Assembly (NCBI RefSeq): GCF_036417845.1
Contig: NC_090015.1
Location: 64,001-128,000 of the forward strand
From: Apteryx mantelli
Lineage: Eukaryota
Direction of reading: 5' to 3'
Length of the DNA: 64,000 nt
Made by a program: the position numbers and the translations under genes. This document shows, piece by piece, positions 29,781 to 63,880 of the stretch (position 1 is its first letter; each line of letters starts with the position of its first letter). The notes beneath the pieces are model-generated. The model was not told where the DNA came from. It ran no database searches and was given only the letters and a program-made list of their open reading frames with translations.

Positions 29781-30112
29781 GCCCAGGTGTCCGGGCGCTG
29801 CCCCTCCCCCTTCAAAGGGGCCCAGGCGTCCGGGCGAGCCGGGCTAATCCCCATCTGCTGGCGCTTAATCCCCCGCCAAGGGCAGCGCCGAGAGGGGCCC
29901 AGGCGTCCGGGCGCCCTCCCCTCCCCCTCCTCGCTCCCAGGGGCCCAGGCGTCCGGGCGCTGCCCCTCCCCCCTCCTGCCTCCTCCGAGGGGCCCAGGCG
30001 TCCAGGCGCTGCCCCTCCCCCCTCCTGCCTCCTCCGAGGGACCCAGGCGTCCGGGCGCTGCCCCTCCCCCCTCCTGCCGCCTAGGAGGGCCCAGGCGTCC
30101 GGGCGCTGTCCA
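29781..30112. repeat. Short transition array, about 5 copies of a ~58-bp unit (gaggggcccaggcgtccgggcgctgcccctcccccctcctgcctcctcc) sharing the satellite core
   Basis: ggcccaggcgtccgggcgctgcccctcccc recurs at 29890, 29944, 29990, 30040 and 30093. Confidence 0.7.
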
Positions 30113-30124
30113 GTGCTGAACCGC

Positions 30125-30960
30125 TGCCTGCACCGGCGCCGGGGCCCTTTGGGTGCCCTATGGGTGCTGTGGGGCAGGGTTGGGGCCCTATGGGAGCCCT
30201 ATGGGTTCTGTGGGGCAGGGTTGGGGCCCTATGGGAGCCCTATGGGTGCCCTATGGGTGCTGTGGGGCAGGGTTGAGGCCCTATGGGAGCCCTATGGGTG
30301 CTGTGGGGCAGGGTTGGGGCCCTATGGGAGGCCTATGGGTGTCCTATGGGTGCTATGGGGCAGGGTTGGGACCCTATGGGAGCCCTATGGGTGCTATGGG
30401 GCAGGGCTGGGGCCCTATGGGGGCCCTATGGGTGCTATGGGGCAGGGCTGGGGCCCTATGGGGGCCCTATGGGAGCCCTATGGGTGCCCCTGGGTGCCCT
30501 ATGGGTGCTGTGGGGCAGGGGTAGCTGCTCTATGGGTGCTGTGGGGCAGGACTGGGGCCCTATGGGACCCTATGGGTGCCCTATGGGTGCTGTGGGGCAG
30601 GGTTGAGGCCCTATGGGTGCCCTATGGGTGCTGTGGGGCAGGGTTGAGGCCCTATGGGAGCCCTATGGGTGCTGTGGGGCAGGGTTGAGGCCCTACGGGT
30701 GCCCTATGGGTGCTATGGGGCAGGGTTGAGGCCCTATGGGGGCCCTATGGGTGCTATGGGGCAGGGCTGGGGCCCTATGGGTGCCCTATGGGTGCTATGG
30801 GGCAGGGCTGGGGCCCTATGGGGGCCCTATGGGTGCCCTATGGGTGCTATGGGGCAGGACTGGGGCCCTACAGGAGCCCTATGGGTGCTATGGGGCAGGG
30901 TTGAGGCCCTATGGGTGTCCTACGGGTGCCCTATGGGTGCTATGGGGCAGGGCTGGTGCC
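30125..30960. repeat. 41-bp satellite (with 52-bp variants), ~20 copies; unit ccctatgggtgctgtggggcagggttggggccctatgggag
   Basis: ggggcaggg recurs at 30171, 30212, 30264, 30305, 30357 and 30398, i.e. at spacings of 41 or 52 (41 + 11). Confidence 0.85.
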
Positions 30961-31925
30961 CTTGGGTGCCTCCAGGGGCCATGTGGGTGCCACGGGGCAG
31001 GTGTGGGTGCCCTGTAGGTCCTGGTGGCACCCATGGGTCATGGTGGCACCTATGGGTCATGGTGACACCCTTGGGTCATGGTGGCACCTATGGGTCTTGG
31101 TGACACCCTTGGGTCATGGTGGCATCTGTGGGTCTTGGTGGCACCCATGGGTCATGGAGGCAGCTATAGGTCATGGTAGCATCTATGGGTCATGGTGGCA
31201 CCCATGGGTCATGGTGGCATCTATGGGTCATGGTGACACCCACAGGTTAAGGTGGCATCTATGGGTCTTGGTGGCACCTATGGGTCATGGTGGCATCTAG
31301 GGGTCATGGTGGCATCTATGGGTTTTGGTGGCACCTATGGGTCATGGTGGCACCCTTGGTCATGGTGGCATCTGTGGGTCTTGGTGACACCCTTGGGTCA
31401 TGGTGGCATCTATGGGTCTTGGTGGCACCCATGGGTCAAGGTGGCACCTCTGGGTCTTGGTGGCACCCATGGGTCATGGTGGCACCCATGGGTCATGGTG
31501 GCATCTATGGGTCTTGGTGACACCCAGGGGTGATGGTGGCATCTATGGGTCTCAGTGGCACCCAGGGGTCATGGTGACACACGTAGGTCATGGAGGCACC
31601 TATGGGTCATGGTGGCACCCACGGGTCATGGTGGCACACATGGGTCATGGAGGCACCTATGGGTCATGGAGGCACCTATGGGTCATGGTGACACCCTTGG
31701 GTCATGGTGGCATCTATGGGTCATGGTGACACCCTTGGGTCATGGTGGCACCTCTGGGTCTTGGTGGCACCCACGGGTCATGGTGGCACCCATGGGTCAT
31801 GGTGGCATCTATGGGTCATGGTGACACCCAGGGGAGATGGTGGCATCTATGGGTCTCAGTGGCACCCATGGGTCATGGTGGCACCGAGGGGTCCCGGTGG
31901 CACCTATGGGTCCCGGTGACACCCC
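30960..31925. repeat. 19-bp minisatellite (atgggtcatggtggcaccc), ~48 copies
   Basis: Direct reading of 31020-31920: atgggtcatggtggcat/ctatgggtcatggtgacaccc repeated. Confidence 0.85.
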
Positions 31926-31952
31926 CGGGTGCCCGGGCCGGGCCGCACTCAC

Positions 31953-32036
31953 TGGTCATCGATGACGTGGTGGCAGGAGCTGGAGATGATGTAGCCGGCC
32001 GTGGAGGCCATGATGGCCTGCACCGAGGACACCAGC
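31953..32036 (-). CDS. TLCD3B: TLC domain-containing protein 3B (FAM57B-like), coding exon 2
   Basis: Minus-strand translation is (R)LVSSVQAIMASTAGYIISSSCHHVIDD(Q). This matches the human TLCD3B segment (as recalled from memory) RLVSSVQAIMASTAGYIVSTSCKHIIDDQHW. Acceptor ccccgcag|g lies at 32038-32037 and donor ca|gtgagtg at 31952-31947. The phase (1) is consistent with exon 1. Confidence 0.75.
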
Positions 32037-32279
32037 CTGCGGGGACATCGGGGACGTCAGGGACACCCAGGACACGGGGGGACGCCGGGGCCACGGAGGG
32101 ACAGGGACAAGGACACGGGCGTTGGGGACATCAAGGGATGGGGACGGGGAAGGCGACGGGGCCACCAGGGGACGGGGACATCAAGGGATGGGGACATGGA
32201 GGGGGGGACAAGGACAGGGCTGGGGACCTCAAGGGACATGAGGGGACACGAGGGGACACGGGGGGGACAAGGCTGCCGG

Positions 32280-61500: not shown

Positions 61501-61551
61501 GTGTGCGGCGACATCCATGGGCAGTTTTATGACCTCAAGGAGCTTTTCCGG
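61501..61551 (+). CDS. PPP4C: PPP4C coding exon 3
   Basis: ccccag|gtgtgc; [17 protein letters not shown] is identical to human; donor cgg|gtgagt. Confidence 0.9.
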
Positions 61552-61554
61552 GTG

Positions 61555-62835
61555 AGTTGCTCCCCCCACTAATTGCCCCCCCGGCTTAATTGCCCCCCCC
61601 GGCTTAATTGCCCCCCCTCCAGCCTAATTACCCTCTTCAGTATTTAATTGCCCCTTCCCAGTTCCTAATTACCCCCCCAACCGCTCGTTCCTTCTCTAAT
61701 TGCCCCCCAGGTTCCTAATTATTACACTGATTTTTAACTGTGCCCTCTTAATTGCCCCCCTTTAGTTGTTCTTTATCTTTAATTGCCCCCCTTAATTGCC
61801 CCCCCCCGGGCCTAATTGCCCCCCCCCGGGCCTAATTGCCCCCCCCGGCCACTAATTGCCCCCCCTAATTGCTGCCCCGAGTCCTGATTCTTCCCGTGGG
61901 TTCTATTTGCCCCCCAGCTCCTAATTGCCCCCCAGCTCCTATTAATTGCCCCCCCAATTGCTTGTCTTGTTGCTCCTGGTTTTTAATTGCCCCCCTCCCC
62001 TTAATTGCCCTGCCTGGGCCTAATTGCCCCCCCAACTGCTAATTGCCCCCCTAATTGCTCCCCCCATCCTGAATTACTGTTGTTGCCCCCAATTGCCCCC
62101 CAGCTCCTAATTGCCCCCGTGGATTTGCCCCCCCTGCATGCACCTAATGGCCCCTTAATTACCCCCCCTGGTTCCTAATTACCCCCTGATTACTGCTTGA
62201 TTACCCCCAGTCCGTAATTGCCCCCGCTAATTGCCCCCCAACCCCTATTTGCCCCTTCAGTTGTTCTCCTGGCCCTTAATTGCCCCCAATTACCCCCCAT
62301 AATTGCCCCCCCCGGCCCTAATTGCTCCTTGGGCATAATTATCCCTGTAATTGCTCCCTCTGATCACTAATTGCCCCCCCTTGGCCTTAAATACCCCCCC
62401 CAATTGCTTTCTCTGGCTCTAATTACCCCCCTAATTGCCCCCAATGCTTAATTGCCCCCCACAATTGCCCCGTAGCCCCTAATTACTTCCTTAATTACCC
62501 CCCCAGCCCCTAACTGCCCCATTTAGCCCCAAATAAGCTTCTAAATTGCCCCTGGGGTCCCTAATTGCCCCTCTAATTGCTCCATAGCCACTAATTACCC
62601 CCCCCAGAACCCCAAACAACCCCCCTAATTGCCCCCCCGGCCCCTAATTGCCCCCCACAGCCCCTAATTGCCCCCCCGACCCCCAAACAGCCTCCCGAAT
62701 CGCACCCGAGCTGCCCTGTTTGCCCCCCGCCGGCCCTAATTACCCCCCCAACTGCCCCCCCGCAGCTCCTAATTGCCCCCCCACCTCCTAATTGCCCCCC
62801 TGCAGCCCTAATTGCCCCCCCTGTCTCTAATTGCC
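61555..62835. repeat. C-strand array (cctaattgcccccc / ttaattgcccc, 12-30-bp units, ~45 copies) in PPP4C intron 3; reverse complement of the intron-1/2 arrays
   Basis: Direct reading: taattgcccc recurs throughout; ggggcaatta is essentially absent after 61552. Confidence 0.85.
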
Positions 62836-62842
62836 CCCGCAG

Positions 62843-62944
62843 GTGGGGGGCGACGTCCCCGAGACCAACTACCTGTTCATGGGCGACTTCGTGGACCGAG
62901 GCTTCTACAGCGTCGAGACCTTCCTGCTGCTCCTCGCCCTCAAG
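62843..62944 (+). CDS. PPP4C: PPP4C coding exon 4
   Basis: ccgcag|gtgggg; [34 protein letters not shown] is identical to human; donor aag|gtgggg. Confidence 0.9.
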
Positions 62945-63880
62945 GTGGGGCCCAGGCGTCCGGGGAAGGGGCCCAGGCGTCCGGGAGAACGACGGGAGGG
63001 GGCCCAGGCGTCCGGGGAGGGGGCCCAGGCATCCGGGAGAGCGACGGGAGGGGGCCCAGGCGTCCGGGGGGGCGACGGGAGGGGGCCCAGGCGTCCGGGG
63101 AGGGGGCCCAGGCATCCGGGGGGGCGACGGGAGGGGGCCCAGGCGTGCGGGGAGGGGGCCCAGGCGTCCGGGAGAGCGACGGGAGGGGGCCCAGGCGTCC
63201 GGGAGGGGGCCCAGGCGTCCAGGAGAGTGACGGGGGGGGGCCCAGGCATCCGGGGGGGCGACGGGAGGGGGCCCAGGCGTCCGGGGAGAGGGCCCAGGCG
63301 TCCAGGAGAACGACGGGAGGGGGCCCAGGCGTCCGGGGAGGGGGCCCAGGTGTCTGGGGGGGCGACGGGAGGGGGCCCAGGCGTCCGGGAGAGCGACGGG
63401 AGGGGGCCCAGGCGTCCGGGGGGGCGACGGAGGGGGCCCAGGCGTCCGGGAGAGCGACGGGAGGGGGCCCAGGCGTCCGGGGAGGGGGCCCAGGCGTCCG
63501 GGAGAGCGACGGGAGGGGGCCCAGGCGTCCGGGGAGGGGGCCCAGCCGTCCGGGAGAGCGACGGGAGGGGGCCCAGGCGTCCGGGGAGGGGGCCCAGGCG
63601 TCTGGGAGGGCGACGGAGGGGGCCCAGGCGTCTGGGAGGGCGACGGAGGGGGCCCAGGCGTCCGGGGGGGCGACAGGAGGGGGCCCAAGCGTCCGGGGAG
63701 GGGGCCCAGGCATCTGGGAATGGGCCCAGGCGTCCGGGGAGGGGGCCCAGGCGTCCGGGAGAGCAAGACAGGGAGCAGGACCCCGGCATCCGGGAAGGGG
63801 CCCAGGTGTCCGGGAGAACCCGGGTGTCCGGGAAGGGGCCCAGGCGTCCGGGCAGGACCCAGACACGCCCCCCCCCGCGC
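62945..63880. repeat. ~58-bp tandem repeat of the satellite core (gggcccaggcgtccggggagggggcccaggcgtccgggagagcgacgggaggg) filling PPP4C intron 4
   Basis: gagagcgacgggaggggg at 63033, 63168, 63376, 63441 and onward; begins directly at the donor. Confidence 0.85.

Follow-up and report, generated by a model that had tools for sequence, protein, structure and literature searches.

On avian dot chromosomes, introns and intergenic DNA undergo 'sequence stuttering' (Hron et al. 2026, PMC12954441), and intronic minisatellites have been reported from the dot chromosomes of zebra finch (bioRxiv 10.1101/2025.10.17.683159, 10.1101/2025.10.14.682431). In these studies the expansions are described as strictly local, recent and independent between species (PMC12954441; bioRxiv 10.1101/2025.10.17.683159, 10.1101/2025.10.14.682431). 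The locus described here resembles avian stuttering in being a GC-rich dot-chromosome gene region in which imperfect tandem units of tens of bases fill introns and intergenic DNA, in arrays that are limited to the space between exons and start at exon borders, and in widely varying lengths of orthologous introns. Unlike in avian stuttering, one 17-nt core occupies four separate places (slots) as well as unrelated genes, its placement and sequence are common across the deepest split of living birds, and other slots at the locus also retain their unit motifs across birds.

Hypervariable minisatellites were reportedly found by Jeffreys et al. in 1985 to share the core GGGCAGGAXG, which the authors are said to have compared to chi and to have proposed as a promoter of unequal exchange and hence of array formation. 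The original prediction for this locus was essentially that proposal of the core as an exchange signal. The likeness lies in many arrays of varied unit length built on one short G-rich core; the core sequence itself is different, and the kiwi-locus core is positionally conserved over ~100 My, which to our knowledge has not been described for human core-sharing minisatellite families. The 'library' model of satellite DNA reportedly goes back to Fry and Salser in 1977 and has a parallel here in that related species share repeat families that are amplified very differently, the array in the TLCD3B intron measuring ~200 bp in penguin versus at least 29.8 kb in kiwi. Unlike in that model, the arrays are short and sit in fixed slots of genic euchromatin, not in heterochromatic blocks, and the conserved item is a core of ~18 nt, not the whole monomer. 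G-rich elements are known downstream of poly(A) sites, at MAZ-type Pol II pause sites and as G-triplet intronic splicing enhancers, and the G-runs found here 25–35 nt past AATAAA between close genes and immediately after a 5′ splice site are similar, a likeness seen in the sequence alone. These elements differ from the core in that its invariant part is CCCAGGCGTCC, not the G-runs, and in that the transcript carries the C-rich strand in two of the four slots. The library model has been applied to palaeognath satellites (PMC11036779).

The window analysed here is a stretch of 64,000 nt from Apteryx mantelli (kiwi) comprising the TLCD3B–ALDOA–PPP4C region. In chicken, ALDOA maps to dot chromosome 38 (PMC12954441), and the whole TLCD3B–ALDOA–PPP4C region is part of a GC-rich dot chromosome. 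ALDOA spliced from the window matches Apteryx mantelli XP_067170996.1 exactly. The original prediction had assigned ALDOA and PPP4C correctly; its third gene territory belongs to TLCD3B, which is encoded on the minus strand. The features referred to below are:

1–29795, plus strand: 58-bp satellite (TRF period 58), extending past the left end of the window
29796–30140, plus strand: satellite edge with a solo core at 29818, the unique landmarks GGGCTAATCCCC and GCTTAATCCCCC and the 49-bp array
29818–30103, plus strand: core cluster (at most 3 mismatches)
29892–30108, plus strand: 49-bp array, 4.5 copies of a unit of core plus C-rich spacer
31934–32039, minus strand: TLCD3B coding exon (tblastx, 87% amino acid identity to penguin L004 4874–4966)
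42412–43350, minus strand: inverted core array, 25 copies (at most 1 mismatch) in 32–40 bp units
43387–58863, plus strand: ALDOA coding sequence, 8 coding exons
58865–58881, plus strand: solo core variant GGGCCCCGGCGTCCGGG in the 3′UTR, from the first base after the ALDOA stop codon
58985–58990, plus strand: ALDOA poly(A) signal AATAAA, with the first core copy of the intergenic array ~30 nt downstream
59019–59962, plus strand: ALDOA/PPP4C intergenic array, ~47 copies of 19–20 bp monomers, 39-bp dimer
59021–59962, plus strand: core cluster (at most 3 mismatches)
61095: start of PPP4C; the intergenic array stops at the PPP4C promoter, which carries TGACGTCA sites
62945–63882, plus strand: PPP4C intron 4, almost wholly core units, the array beginning at the GT donor
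62948–63852, plus strand: core cluster (at most 3 mismatches)

The exact 17-base core GGGCCCAGGCGTCCGGG occurs 554 times in the window versus 0.00 times expected from 100 dinucleotide-preserving shuffles; the shared motif is genuine and not an effect of base composition. The satellite holds 510 of these copies and the rest of the window 44, and with up to 3 mismatches all matches outside the satellite are confined to four clusters and one solo copy. As had been claimed, the core builds several arrays in both orientations, namely five with different spacers, of which the one upstream of ALDOA is inverted. They occupy four slots instead of five separate sites, the satellite and the 49-bp 'transition' array falling in one place. 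The slots are a TLCD3B intron, the stretch immediately before the ALDOA ATG (where the array is inverted), the sequence directly behind the poly(A) signal of ALDOA, and the whole of PPP4C intron 4. GG[G/A]CCCAGGCGTCCGGG, the consensus, would be the defining monomer, of ~18 nt, of a minisatellite family. A MAZ/SP-like GGGAGGGG had been placed inside each core; it arises instead at unit junctions, outside the core, where either GGGAGGGG or GGGGAGGGG is formed. GGGAGGGG was counted 491 times in the satellite, 22 times in the array of intron 4 and 16 times in the intergenic one, against 2 occurrences in the inverted array and none in the 49-bp array; this MAZ-like sequence is a junction by-product, the conserved part of the core being CCCAGGCGTCC.

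The satellite unit consists of the canonical core, a spacer GAGTCTCGCGTCACCTCTAG and a variant core (GGGGACCCGGGCGTCCGGGA); the core is thus present twice per 58 bp, as proposed, except that the second copy is a variant with 2 mismatches, GGACCCGGGCGTCCGGG. Across 481 in-register units the identity to the consensus is 97.2%, with a minor fraction of at most 0.02 in the canonical core and up to 0.18 in the second copy and the spacer. Exact cores are spaced mostly at 58 bp (418 times) and also at 39, 19, 57, 97 and 116 bp, a pattern that shows core copies to have exchanged out of register; within the arrays, slips by a single core monomer happen. The exon at 31934–32039 anchors the satellite and the 49-bp array beside or inside TLCD3B; the matching penguin interval lies within a gene called TRAM_LAG1_CLN8 there. 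The kiwi slot was matched to the penguin intron through the unique TAATCCCC landmarks and the conserved exon, and Eudyptes L004 4470–4600 has the landmark order of the kiwi satellite edge with core copies flanking; one alignment of the two stretches is noisy. Satellite and 49-bp array accordingly form one place that corresponds to a TLCD3B intron in penguins, and this place is common to at least kiwi and penguins. The spacer of the 58-mer was found in none of the other loci compared.

In the inverted array the unit is CCCGGACGCCTGGGCCCCTTGA plus a poly-C run, and the stretch that holds the array runs up to a CAG acceptor immediately before the ALDOA ATG. The final copies, at 43293 and 43334, stand singly and are orthologous between palaeognaths, and emu, ostrich, rhea and penguins carry the core in the same slot and orientation as kiwi. 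Kiwi, emu, ostrich and rhea show no difference in the solo core of the ALDOA 3′UTR (100% identity) but diverge over the next ~90 nt of 3′UTR. Nearly pure core monomers, including the CpG-decayed variants GGTGTCC, GGCATCC and GGAGTCC, make up the intergenic array; its unit had been put at 22 bp and was measured as 19–20 bp (47 copies). Palaeognaths, penguins and crane have an orthologous first copy of this array, 25–35 nt after AATAAA, and one 15/19 copy is retained at this position by ducks. The array is large in palaeognaths only, king penguin having 1–2 copies.

The intron 4 array begins at the donor as had been described and contains 35 copies, 20 of them exact, in which units of 21 and 31 bp alternate (21 + 31), the last standing directly before the acceptor. 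An equivalent structure with a 51-bp unit (21 + 30) is present in king penguin, and among core-carrying species the intron varies from 109 to 1113 bp. Both boundary copies are orthologous, reading GTGGG[G/A]CCCAGGCGTCCGGG at the donor and GGACCCAGACGT..GCAG before the acceptor, and the last copy GGACCCAGACG... is common to kiwi, ostrich, Eudyptes and eagle. The proposed tie between core and array starts is thus supported by single 'seed' copies at the intron donor and 25–35 nt past the poly(A) signal.

The cross-species comparison covered one locus and birds only, namely four palaeognaths (kiwi, emu, ostrich and rhea) together with penguins, eagle, crane, ducks, swan, parrot, cuckoo and wrentit; the assemblies of Eudyptes and eagle contain gaps. 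In kiwi, emu, ostrich, rhea, king penguin and Eudyptes the core (at most 2 mismatches) is present in the three ALDOA/PPP4C slots, always in reverse orientation upstream of ALDOA and forward in the intergenic region and PPP4C intron 4, and at the same threshold these six birds have no core in ALDOA introns 1–7 or PPP4C introns 1–3. In eagle the core has copies where PPP4C intron 4 ends (3′ end), and in crane it is present as decayed copies that follow the pattern GCACCCAGGTGTC. The core is absent from the locus in ducks, swan, parrot, cuckoo and wrentit, with 0 matches at up to 2 mismatches in ~220 kb of the same GC-rich locus. Slot by slot, where some species have an array, others have a single core copy. 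Because slots, orientation and boundary variants are common to palaeognaths, penguins and eagle, the placement predates the deepest split of living birds, and core copies were in the three ALDOA/PPP4C places before palaeognaths and neognaths separated. Given the core-free birds, the core is dispensable, and 'ancestral' requires several losses or decay past recognition.

No slot or species departs from the core consensus, whereas the spacers vary and so do the lengths of the arrays. Between kiwi and king penguin the intron 4 cores match at 36 of 38 positions versus 4 of 13 in the insert (Fisher p = 1e-5). Third-codon divergence between kiwi and penguin is 0.25; at this divergence the chance of 14 nt remaining unchanged in three slots is ~6e-6, a figure from a rough calculation instead of simulated array evolution. 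The inserts that separate the cores were replaced while the core consensus stayed unchanged. Each place expanded, shrank and was re-amplified on the spot, resulting in lineage-specific spacers, unit lengths and sizes, and the kiwi 58-bp satellite of at least 29.8 kb is a product of this in-place re-amplification. In one metagenome sample, contigs of bird host DNA contain the core both singly and in arrays whose spacers are different, among them contigs with DDR1 and a P-type ATPase gene (at an intron donor). Non-local spread of the core must have taken place at some point, the core being present also in these unrelated genes of another bird.

We consider it probable that the core defines an ancient, dispersed bird minisatellite family that has been re-amplified in place, the core being preserved by selection or by core-dependent amplification. 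The home of such a family would be the GC-rich, gene-dense parts of bird microchromosomes, where units with an intact core may be preferentially retained or re-amplified. This could be caused by the core acting as a sequence-specific site on double-stranded DNA that binds a protein or initiates exchange; alternatively, the core might be restored by GC-biased repair between neighbouring units. Its initial dispersal to several places, and to other genes genome-wide, would have proceeded by non-local copying between arrays, not as a transposon.

If the family were extremely dense on dot chromosomes, repeated colonisation could yield some slot co-occupancy, which would speak against an ancient placement. 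Other introns and slots at the locus retain their own unit motifs across birds; because these slot-specific families are also deeply conserved, the preserving force may be general to arrays and not specific to the core.

A possible but doubtful alternative is that the arrays grew out of a functional cis-element, the core, which ordinary purifying selection maintains; candidates could be the binding site of a conserved avian DNA-binding protein, a G-rich element past the poly(A) site with a role in 3′ processing or Pol II pausing, or a splicing element close to the donor. The complete conservation of the solo 3′UTR copy in four palaeognaths amid diverged flanks, the fixed offset of the first copy after AATAAA in palaeognaths, penguins and crane, the copies abutting the intron donor in PPP4C and in the ATPase gene of another bird, the far better conservation of core than inserts and the near invariance of the canonical copy across the 481 satellite units would all fit. 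However, the core was lost in ducks, swan, parrot, cuckoo and wrentit though the genes persist, other slot-specific array families are likewise deeply conserved, and no known factor motif was recognised in a comparison by eye. An RNA-level role cannot account for all four slots, because the G-rich strand is sense downstream of ALDOA and in PPP4C intron 4 and antisense in the TLCD3B intron and upstream of ALDOA; moreover, the conserved CCCAGGCGTCC differs from the G-runs used by such RNA elements.

The original prediction, that the five kiwi arrays arose independently, each seeded by a hot motif (a signal for slippage, conversion or recombination) or a recently dispersed small element, is unlikely. 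It draws on one core combined with five differing spacers and unit lengths, on the one-monomer register slips within the satellite and on single copies in some species where others have an array. Yet matching slots, orientations and boundary copies recur in emu, ostrich, rhea, penguins and eagle, which shows the array placements to be inherited and not made in kiwi, only sizes and spacers being lineage-specific. Of the motif-directed process invoked, out-of-register exchange is seen in the satellite spacings; structure-driven slippage found no support, since hairpin energies are no better than in shuffled sequences (z −0.2 to +1.1). The account of the origin therefore stands in its non-compositional motif and non-local spread and fails in the independent origination within the kiwi genome.

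Still less credible is a transposable element fragment (SINE, MITE or LTR end) whose insertions later became arrays: copies are scattered in unrelated genes of another bird and occur in both orientations, but dispersed copies are alike over ~20 nt only, with flanks differing from the third base outward, an Rfam search of 28000–64000 gave no match, tRNA- or 5S-derived or other, and slots and orientations have been stable throughout the history of living birds. That the signal is a coincidental or compositional match in very GC-rich DNA, or stems from misassembly or contamination, can practically be dismissed despite the array GC content of 0.77–0.81, the difficulty of assembling long tandem arrays and the label 'UNVERIFIED_CONTAM' on the penguin ALDOA record, given the 0 matches expected from shuffles and found in equally GC-rich orthologous DNA of five other bird lineages, the recurrence of the pattern with species-specific spacers in eight independent assemblies, and a penguin locus that is not kiwi contamination because it is syntenic and shows a 25% third-codon difference.

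For an ancient family re-amplified in place, the implication is that a core motif survived ~100 million years within DNA thought to turn over fast. The ancient families at this locus conflict with the published view of 'stuttering' repeats as recent and strictly local.

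We found 554 copies of the 17-nt core GGGCCCAGGCGTCCGGG in the window, compared to 0 expected from shuffled sequences, which confirms that a shared core is repeated beyond base composition. Exact copies were concentrated in the 58-bp satellite (510 within 1-29795). Outside the satellite, cores with ≤3 mismatches occurred only as four clusters and one solo copy. The core arrays lie within and between three genes. Coding exons of ALDOA and PPP4C were located by tblastn using the human proteins and TLCD3B by tblastx, which cleanly recovered one exon. The ALDOA protein spliced from the window matched the Apteryx mantelli sequence XP_067170996.1 exactly. 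GC content was 0.56-0.79 across the window, TRF yielded 370 rows, and nearly all of the sequence was tandemly repetitive. In chicken, ALDOA resides on dot chromosome 38 (PMC12954441). The genes and core arrays are located as follows:

1-29795: 58-bp satellite (TRF period 58), running off the left edge of the window
29892-30108: 49-bp array at the satellite edge, plus a solo copy at 29818
31934-32039, minus strand: TLCD3B exon
42412-43350, core in reverse orientation: inverted array, 25 copies, immediately 5' of the ALDOA ATG
43387-58863: ALDOA coding exons
58865: solo core, at the first base past the ALDOA stop codon
59019-59962: intergenic array with a 19-20 bp unit, starting ~30 nt past the ALDOA AATAAA
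61095-63999: first five exons of PPP4C
62945-63882: PPP4C intron 4 array, filling the intron from the GT donor onward

The TRF periods of the five arrays were 58, 49, 32-34, 19/39 and 31/52, corresponding to head-to-tail units of 10-100 bp, and the five arrays in their four slots carry five different spacers. Satellite scale (>10 kb) is reached at 1-29795, with 481 in-register units of 97.2% identity in an array that is cut by the window edge. Several details of the original prediction had to be revised. The intergenic period, given as 22 bp, was measured as 19-20 bp, and the MAZ/SP-like GGGAGGGG assigned to the core itself arises instead at unit junctions. Each 58-bp unit was said to hold the core twice; one copy is indeed canonical and the other is a variant core. 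Among the 481 in-register units, the minor-allele fraction was ≤0.02 at every position of the canonical copy, compared to values of up to 0.18 in the second copy and the spacer. Exact cores within the satellite were spaced by 58, 39, 19, 97 and 116 bp, which shows misalignment by one core monomer, and the exactness of many kiwi copies indicates recent re-amplification.

Further repeats and sites were noticed near these arrays. Between TLCD3B and ALDOA (35046-37563) there are ~15 copies of a ~100 bp unit composed of 19-bp GGGGGCGGGGCC subunits, which are GC-box-like. In the ALDOA 3'UTR, the solo core precedes a short 10-bp array of GACACGTCAC (58882-58940), and related repeats containing TGACGTCA are present in emu, ducks and penguins. 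Two CRE-like TGACGTCAC sites are located directly past the end of the intergenic array, in the PPP4C promoter (59990-60050).

The kiwi arrays had been interpreted as at least five independent originations directed by the motif. The orthologous TLCD3B-ALDOA-PPP4C locus was compared among emu, ostrich, rhea, king penguin, two Eudyptes penguins, crane, cuckoo and eagle, and additionally in four duck assemblies, swan, one parrot and one wrentit, with exons mapped in each. In the four palaeognaths and both penguin genera, cores (≤2 mismatches) were found in exactly three ALDOA/PPP4C slots and in fixed orientation, namely reverse upstream of ALDOA and forward both between ALDOA and PPP4C and in PPP4C intron 4. 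ALDOA introns 1-7 and PPP4C introns 1-3 of these birds contained no core at the same threshold. In eagle, core copies were present at the 3' end of PPP4C intron 4, beside an assembly gap, and crane had decayed copies such as GCACCCAGGTGTC. No core with ≤2 mismatches was found at the loci of ducks, swan, parrot, cuckoo and wrentit; ducks and swan possess one 15/19 core copy at the first intergenic position, followed by a different array.

The copies at the array boundaries also agree between lineages. PPP4C intron 4 starts with GTGGG[G/A]CCCAGGCGTCCGGG, and the last core before its acceptor reads GGACCCAGACGT...GCAG in ostrich, Eudyptes and eagle; kiwi has GGACCCAGAC at this position. The first intergenic core follows AATAAA at an equal offset in palaeognaths, penguins and crane. 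In the fourth slot, the counterpart of the kiwi satellite and 49-bp array is a small array of cores within a penguin TLCD3B intron. This match was made by means of a conserved exon and of unique TAATCCCC landmarks that have core copies beside them, with the order judged by eye, while a MAFFT alignment of the satellite edge to the penguin sequences was noisy owing to the repeats. From the penguin gene model we infer that the kiwi satellite lies within the TLCD3B intron. The ALDOA record of the Eudyptes penguins (L004/L005) bears the source label 'UNVERIFIED_CONTAM'; since the contig is syntenic for TLCD3B-ALDOA-PPP4C and bird-like, this label seems to be a false alarm.

Thus, three ALDOA/PPP4C slots are common to palaeognaths and penguins, and the TLCD3B slot is common at least to kiwi and penguins. 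The five kiwi arrays therefore represent four slots that were occupied before the lineages split. The split between palaeognaths and neognaths is usually dated to ~100 million years ago. Slots, orientation and boundary copies shared between palaeognaths and penguins, and in part with eagle, contradict an independent origin of the kiwi arrays. The original prediction is confirmed with regard to a real, non-compositional shared core, and its interpretation of how the arrays arose is supported in part.

Within these slots, the core was kept and its surroundings were replaced. The consensus GG[G/A]CCCAGGCGTCCGGG was found in every slot and species, with varying flanks. In PPP4C intron 4, kiwi and king penguin both retain an alternation of 21 and 31 bp; 36/38 core positions are equal between the two species compared to 4/13 positions of the insert (Fisher p = 1e-5). 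At a kiwi-penguin third-codon divergence of 0.25, the probability that the 14-nt consensus would be unchanged in three slots is ~6e-6 by a rough calculation. Likewise, the solo 3'UTR core is invariant in the four palaeognaths, while the neighbouring 3'UTR diverges. Array lengths differ up to ~150-fold between species: PPP4C intron 4 measures from 109 to 1113 bp, and the TLCD3B array ~200 bp in penguin versus at least 29.8 kb in kiwi. The 58-bp unit's spacer was absent from every other locus compared, of which those of emu and ostrich stop short of the TLCD3B intron. At core position 3 (G/A), the arrays of palaeognaths contain both bases and those of penguins have A throughout, a pattern that is at most suggestive of homogenisation across slots.

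Long persistence is not restricted to the core arrays. We compared the GC skew of the window (43501-58767 and 61194-63882) with the same slots of loci L001-L004, L126-L131 and L135, including those of wrentit, parrot, Eudyptes, emu, duck and cuckoo. For nearly all introns and intergenic slots, the sign of the skew was equal in all birds compared, even where the repeat units no longer look alike. Three further families were assigned to introns:

43501-46590: CACTGGGAGG family in ALDOA intron 1, from the donor in kiwi, emu, ostrich, penguin, cuckoo, duck and swan
46801-49171: GGGGACGTTGGGG family in ALDOA intron 2, filling the intron and kept across birds
61552-62842: CCCTAAT(T/C)TGCCCCCC family in PPP4C intron 3, filling the intron from kiwi to duck

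Since each of these introns has retained a unit motif of its own across birds, deep array persistence is general at this locus; what sets the core family apart is its complexity, its occupation of several slots and its presence in other genes. Families were also found in extra slots of single lineages. The ALDOA intron 1 family recurs in the cuckoo intergenic region (L135), with 48 repeated 10-mers common to both, and the duck intergenic region (L131) contains the CCTAATTGC family of PPP4C intron 3 in inverted orientation. Such instances, at times inverted, suggest occasional copying between neighbouring arrays.

A second family, CCCATAGGG/CCCTATGGG, forms a 41-bp array at 30141-30970 in the kiwi TLCD3B intron. 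In parrot (L003, 13950-14400 and 18305-19189), it occupies the ALDOA 3' flank and PPP4C intron 4, which are core slots in kiwi, and the related near-palindrome CACCCATGGGTGC adjoins cores in penguin, crane and duck. In ALDOA intron 1 of wrentit (L002, 10235-10976), there are about five repeats of the 3' part of coding exon 1 (residues 17-38), and the emu (L126) intron 1 unit holds the exon-like GCTCGCCGACATCGCCCTGCGCATCG. Both resemble the 'exon stuttering' reported in chicken.

The presence of the core in other genes was revealed by a metagenome scan, in which one sample (Ga0065711/Ga0065710) contained more than 20 short bird DNA contigs with GGGACCCAGGCGTCCGGG, either as solo copies or in arrays that have further, different spacers. 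One of these contigs holds a DDR1 gene and another an ATPase exon with the intron start GTGAGGGGACCCAGGCGTCCGGG. The DDR1 exons are 98% identical to Mesitornis and Ibidorhyncha, each over ~1/3 of the query, which identifies the host as a bird; the bird behind sample Ga0065711 is probably neoavian. In the metagenome bird contig L114 (2353-2430), one core lies inside the apparent first coding exon of DDR1, just before a GT donor, and encodes GTQASG at the end of the signal-peptide-like MGVLPLPLLLLAAGTQASG.

Taken together, the comparisons show that the core arrays sit at orthologous positions of ancient origin, that they turn over where they stand, and that the core, itself conserved, belongs to a dispersed family. 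Some force appears to keep cores intact. It may be purifying selection on a site at the DNA level, or intact units may be re-amplified preferentially, or repair biased towards GC may act between units. A role at the RNA level cannot be common to all slots, as the G-rich strand is sense in two slots and antisense in the other two, and the core is not essential, given that several lineages lack it. The core arrays also contain possible G-quadruplex motifs, with loops of 11 nt: a regular expression (four G-runs ≥3, loops ≤12) matched 494 times in the satellite, 20 times in the intergenic array and 18 times in the PPP4C intron array on the plus strand, and 18 times on the minus strand in the inverted array upstream of ALDOA. 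By eye, the core showed no convincing likeness to the known binding motifs of CTCF, AP-2, PLAG1, EBF, HINFP or Kaiso. A transposable-element origin is unlikely because dispersed copies have nothing in common past ~20 nt, their flanks being unrelated, and an Rfam search of 28000-64000 gave no match, which also leaves a structured RNA or SINE origin unsupported. Slippage driven by hairpins was rejected, as the core, the 58-mer and the 52-mer folded, as DNA and on either strand, no better than shuffled sequences (z-scores -0.18 to +1.10).

The arrays resemble core-sharing minisatellites of the Jeffreys type in that separate arrays share one short core, have different unit remainders, and in another bird have other spacers. 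Judged by eye, GGGCCCAGGCGTCCGGG is not related to the Jeffreys-type core GGGCAGGAXG/chi, having only CAGG in common with it. Studies on dot-chromosome 'sequence stuttering' and intronic minisatellites (Hron et al. 2026, PMC12954441, and related papers) describe expansions as local, recent and species-independent. The locus studied here fits this description in its repetitive introns and intergenic DNA, its GC-rich dot-chromosome setting and the termination of arrays at exon borders. It differs in that the core is found in four slots plus other genes and is common to palaeognaths, penguins and eagle. No such core is given in these papers, nor is it mentioned in a survey of palaeognath satellites (PMC11036779). 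No paper of the searchable literature contained 14-mers or 15-mers from the core, and 12-mer matches were to unrelated mammalian sequences.

We tentatively propose, as a reading that we consider rather doubtful, that the core acts in cis as a sequence-specific element, either bound by a conserved avian factor or serving as a self-favouring signal for exchange or replication restart. As such, it would nucleate and maintain minisatellite arrays on the dot chromosomes of birds and would have been kept since before palaeognaths and neognaths split. If true, 'sequence stuttering' would be motif-dependent, ancient and partly non-local, rather than random, recent and local instability. The notable finding is that avian dot-chromosome stuttering includes a core-sharing minisatellite family whose position and sequence have been conserved for ~100 million years. 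The comparison documents intron growth, from a penguin intronic array of a few hundred bases to a kiwi satellite of at least 30 kb, and provides the core as a cross-species marker for regions that are hard to assemble. The question of what drives or constrains 'stuttering' becomes testable with a defined oligonucleotide. Introns filled with repeats on bird dot chromosomes have come to notice only lately, and the published picture is one of recent, local and species-specific repeats. In contrast, repeats at this locus are long-lived, with slot, strand polarity and unit motif persisting across living birds.
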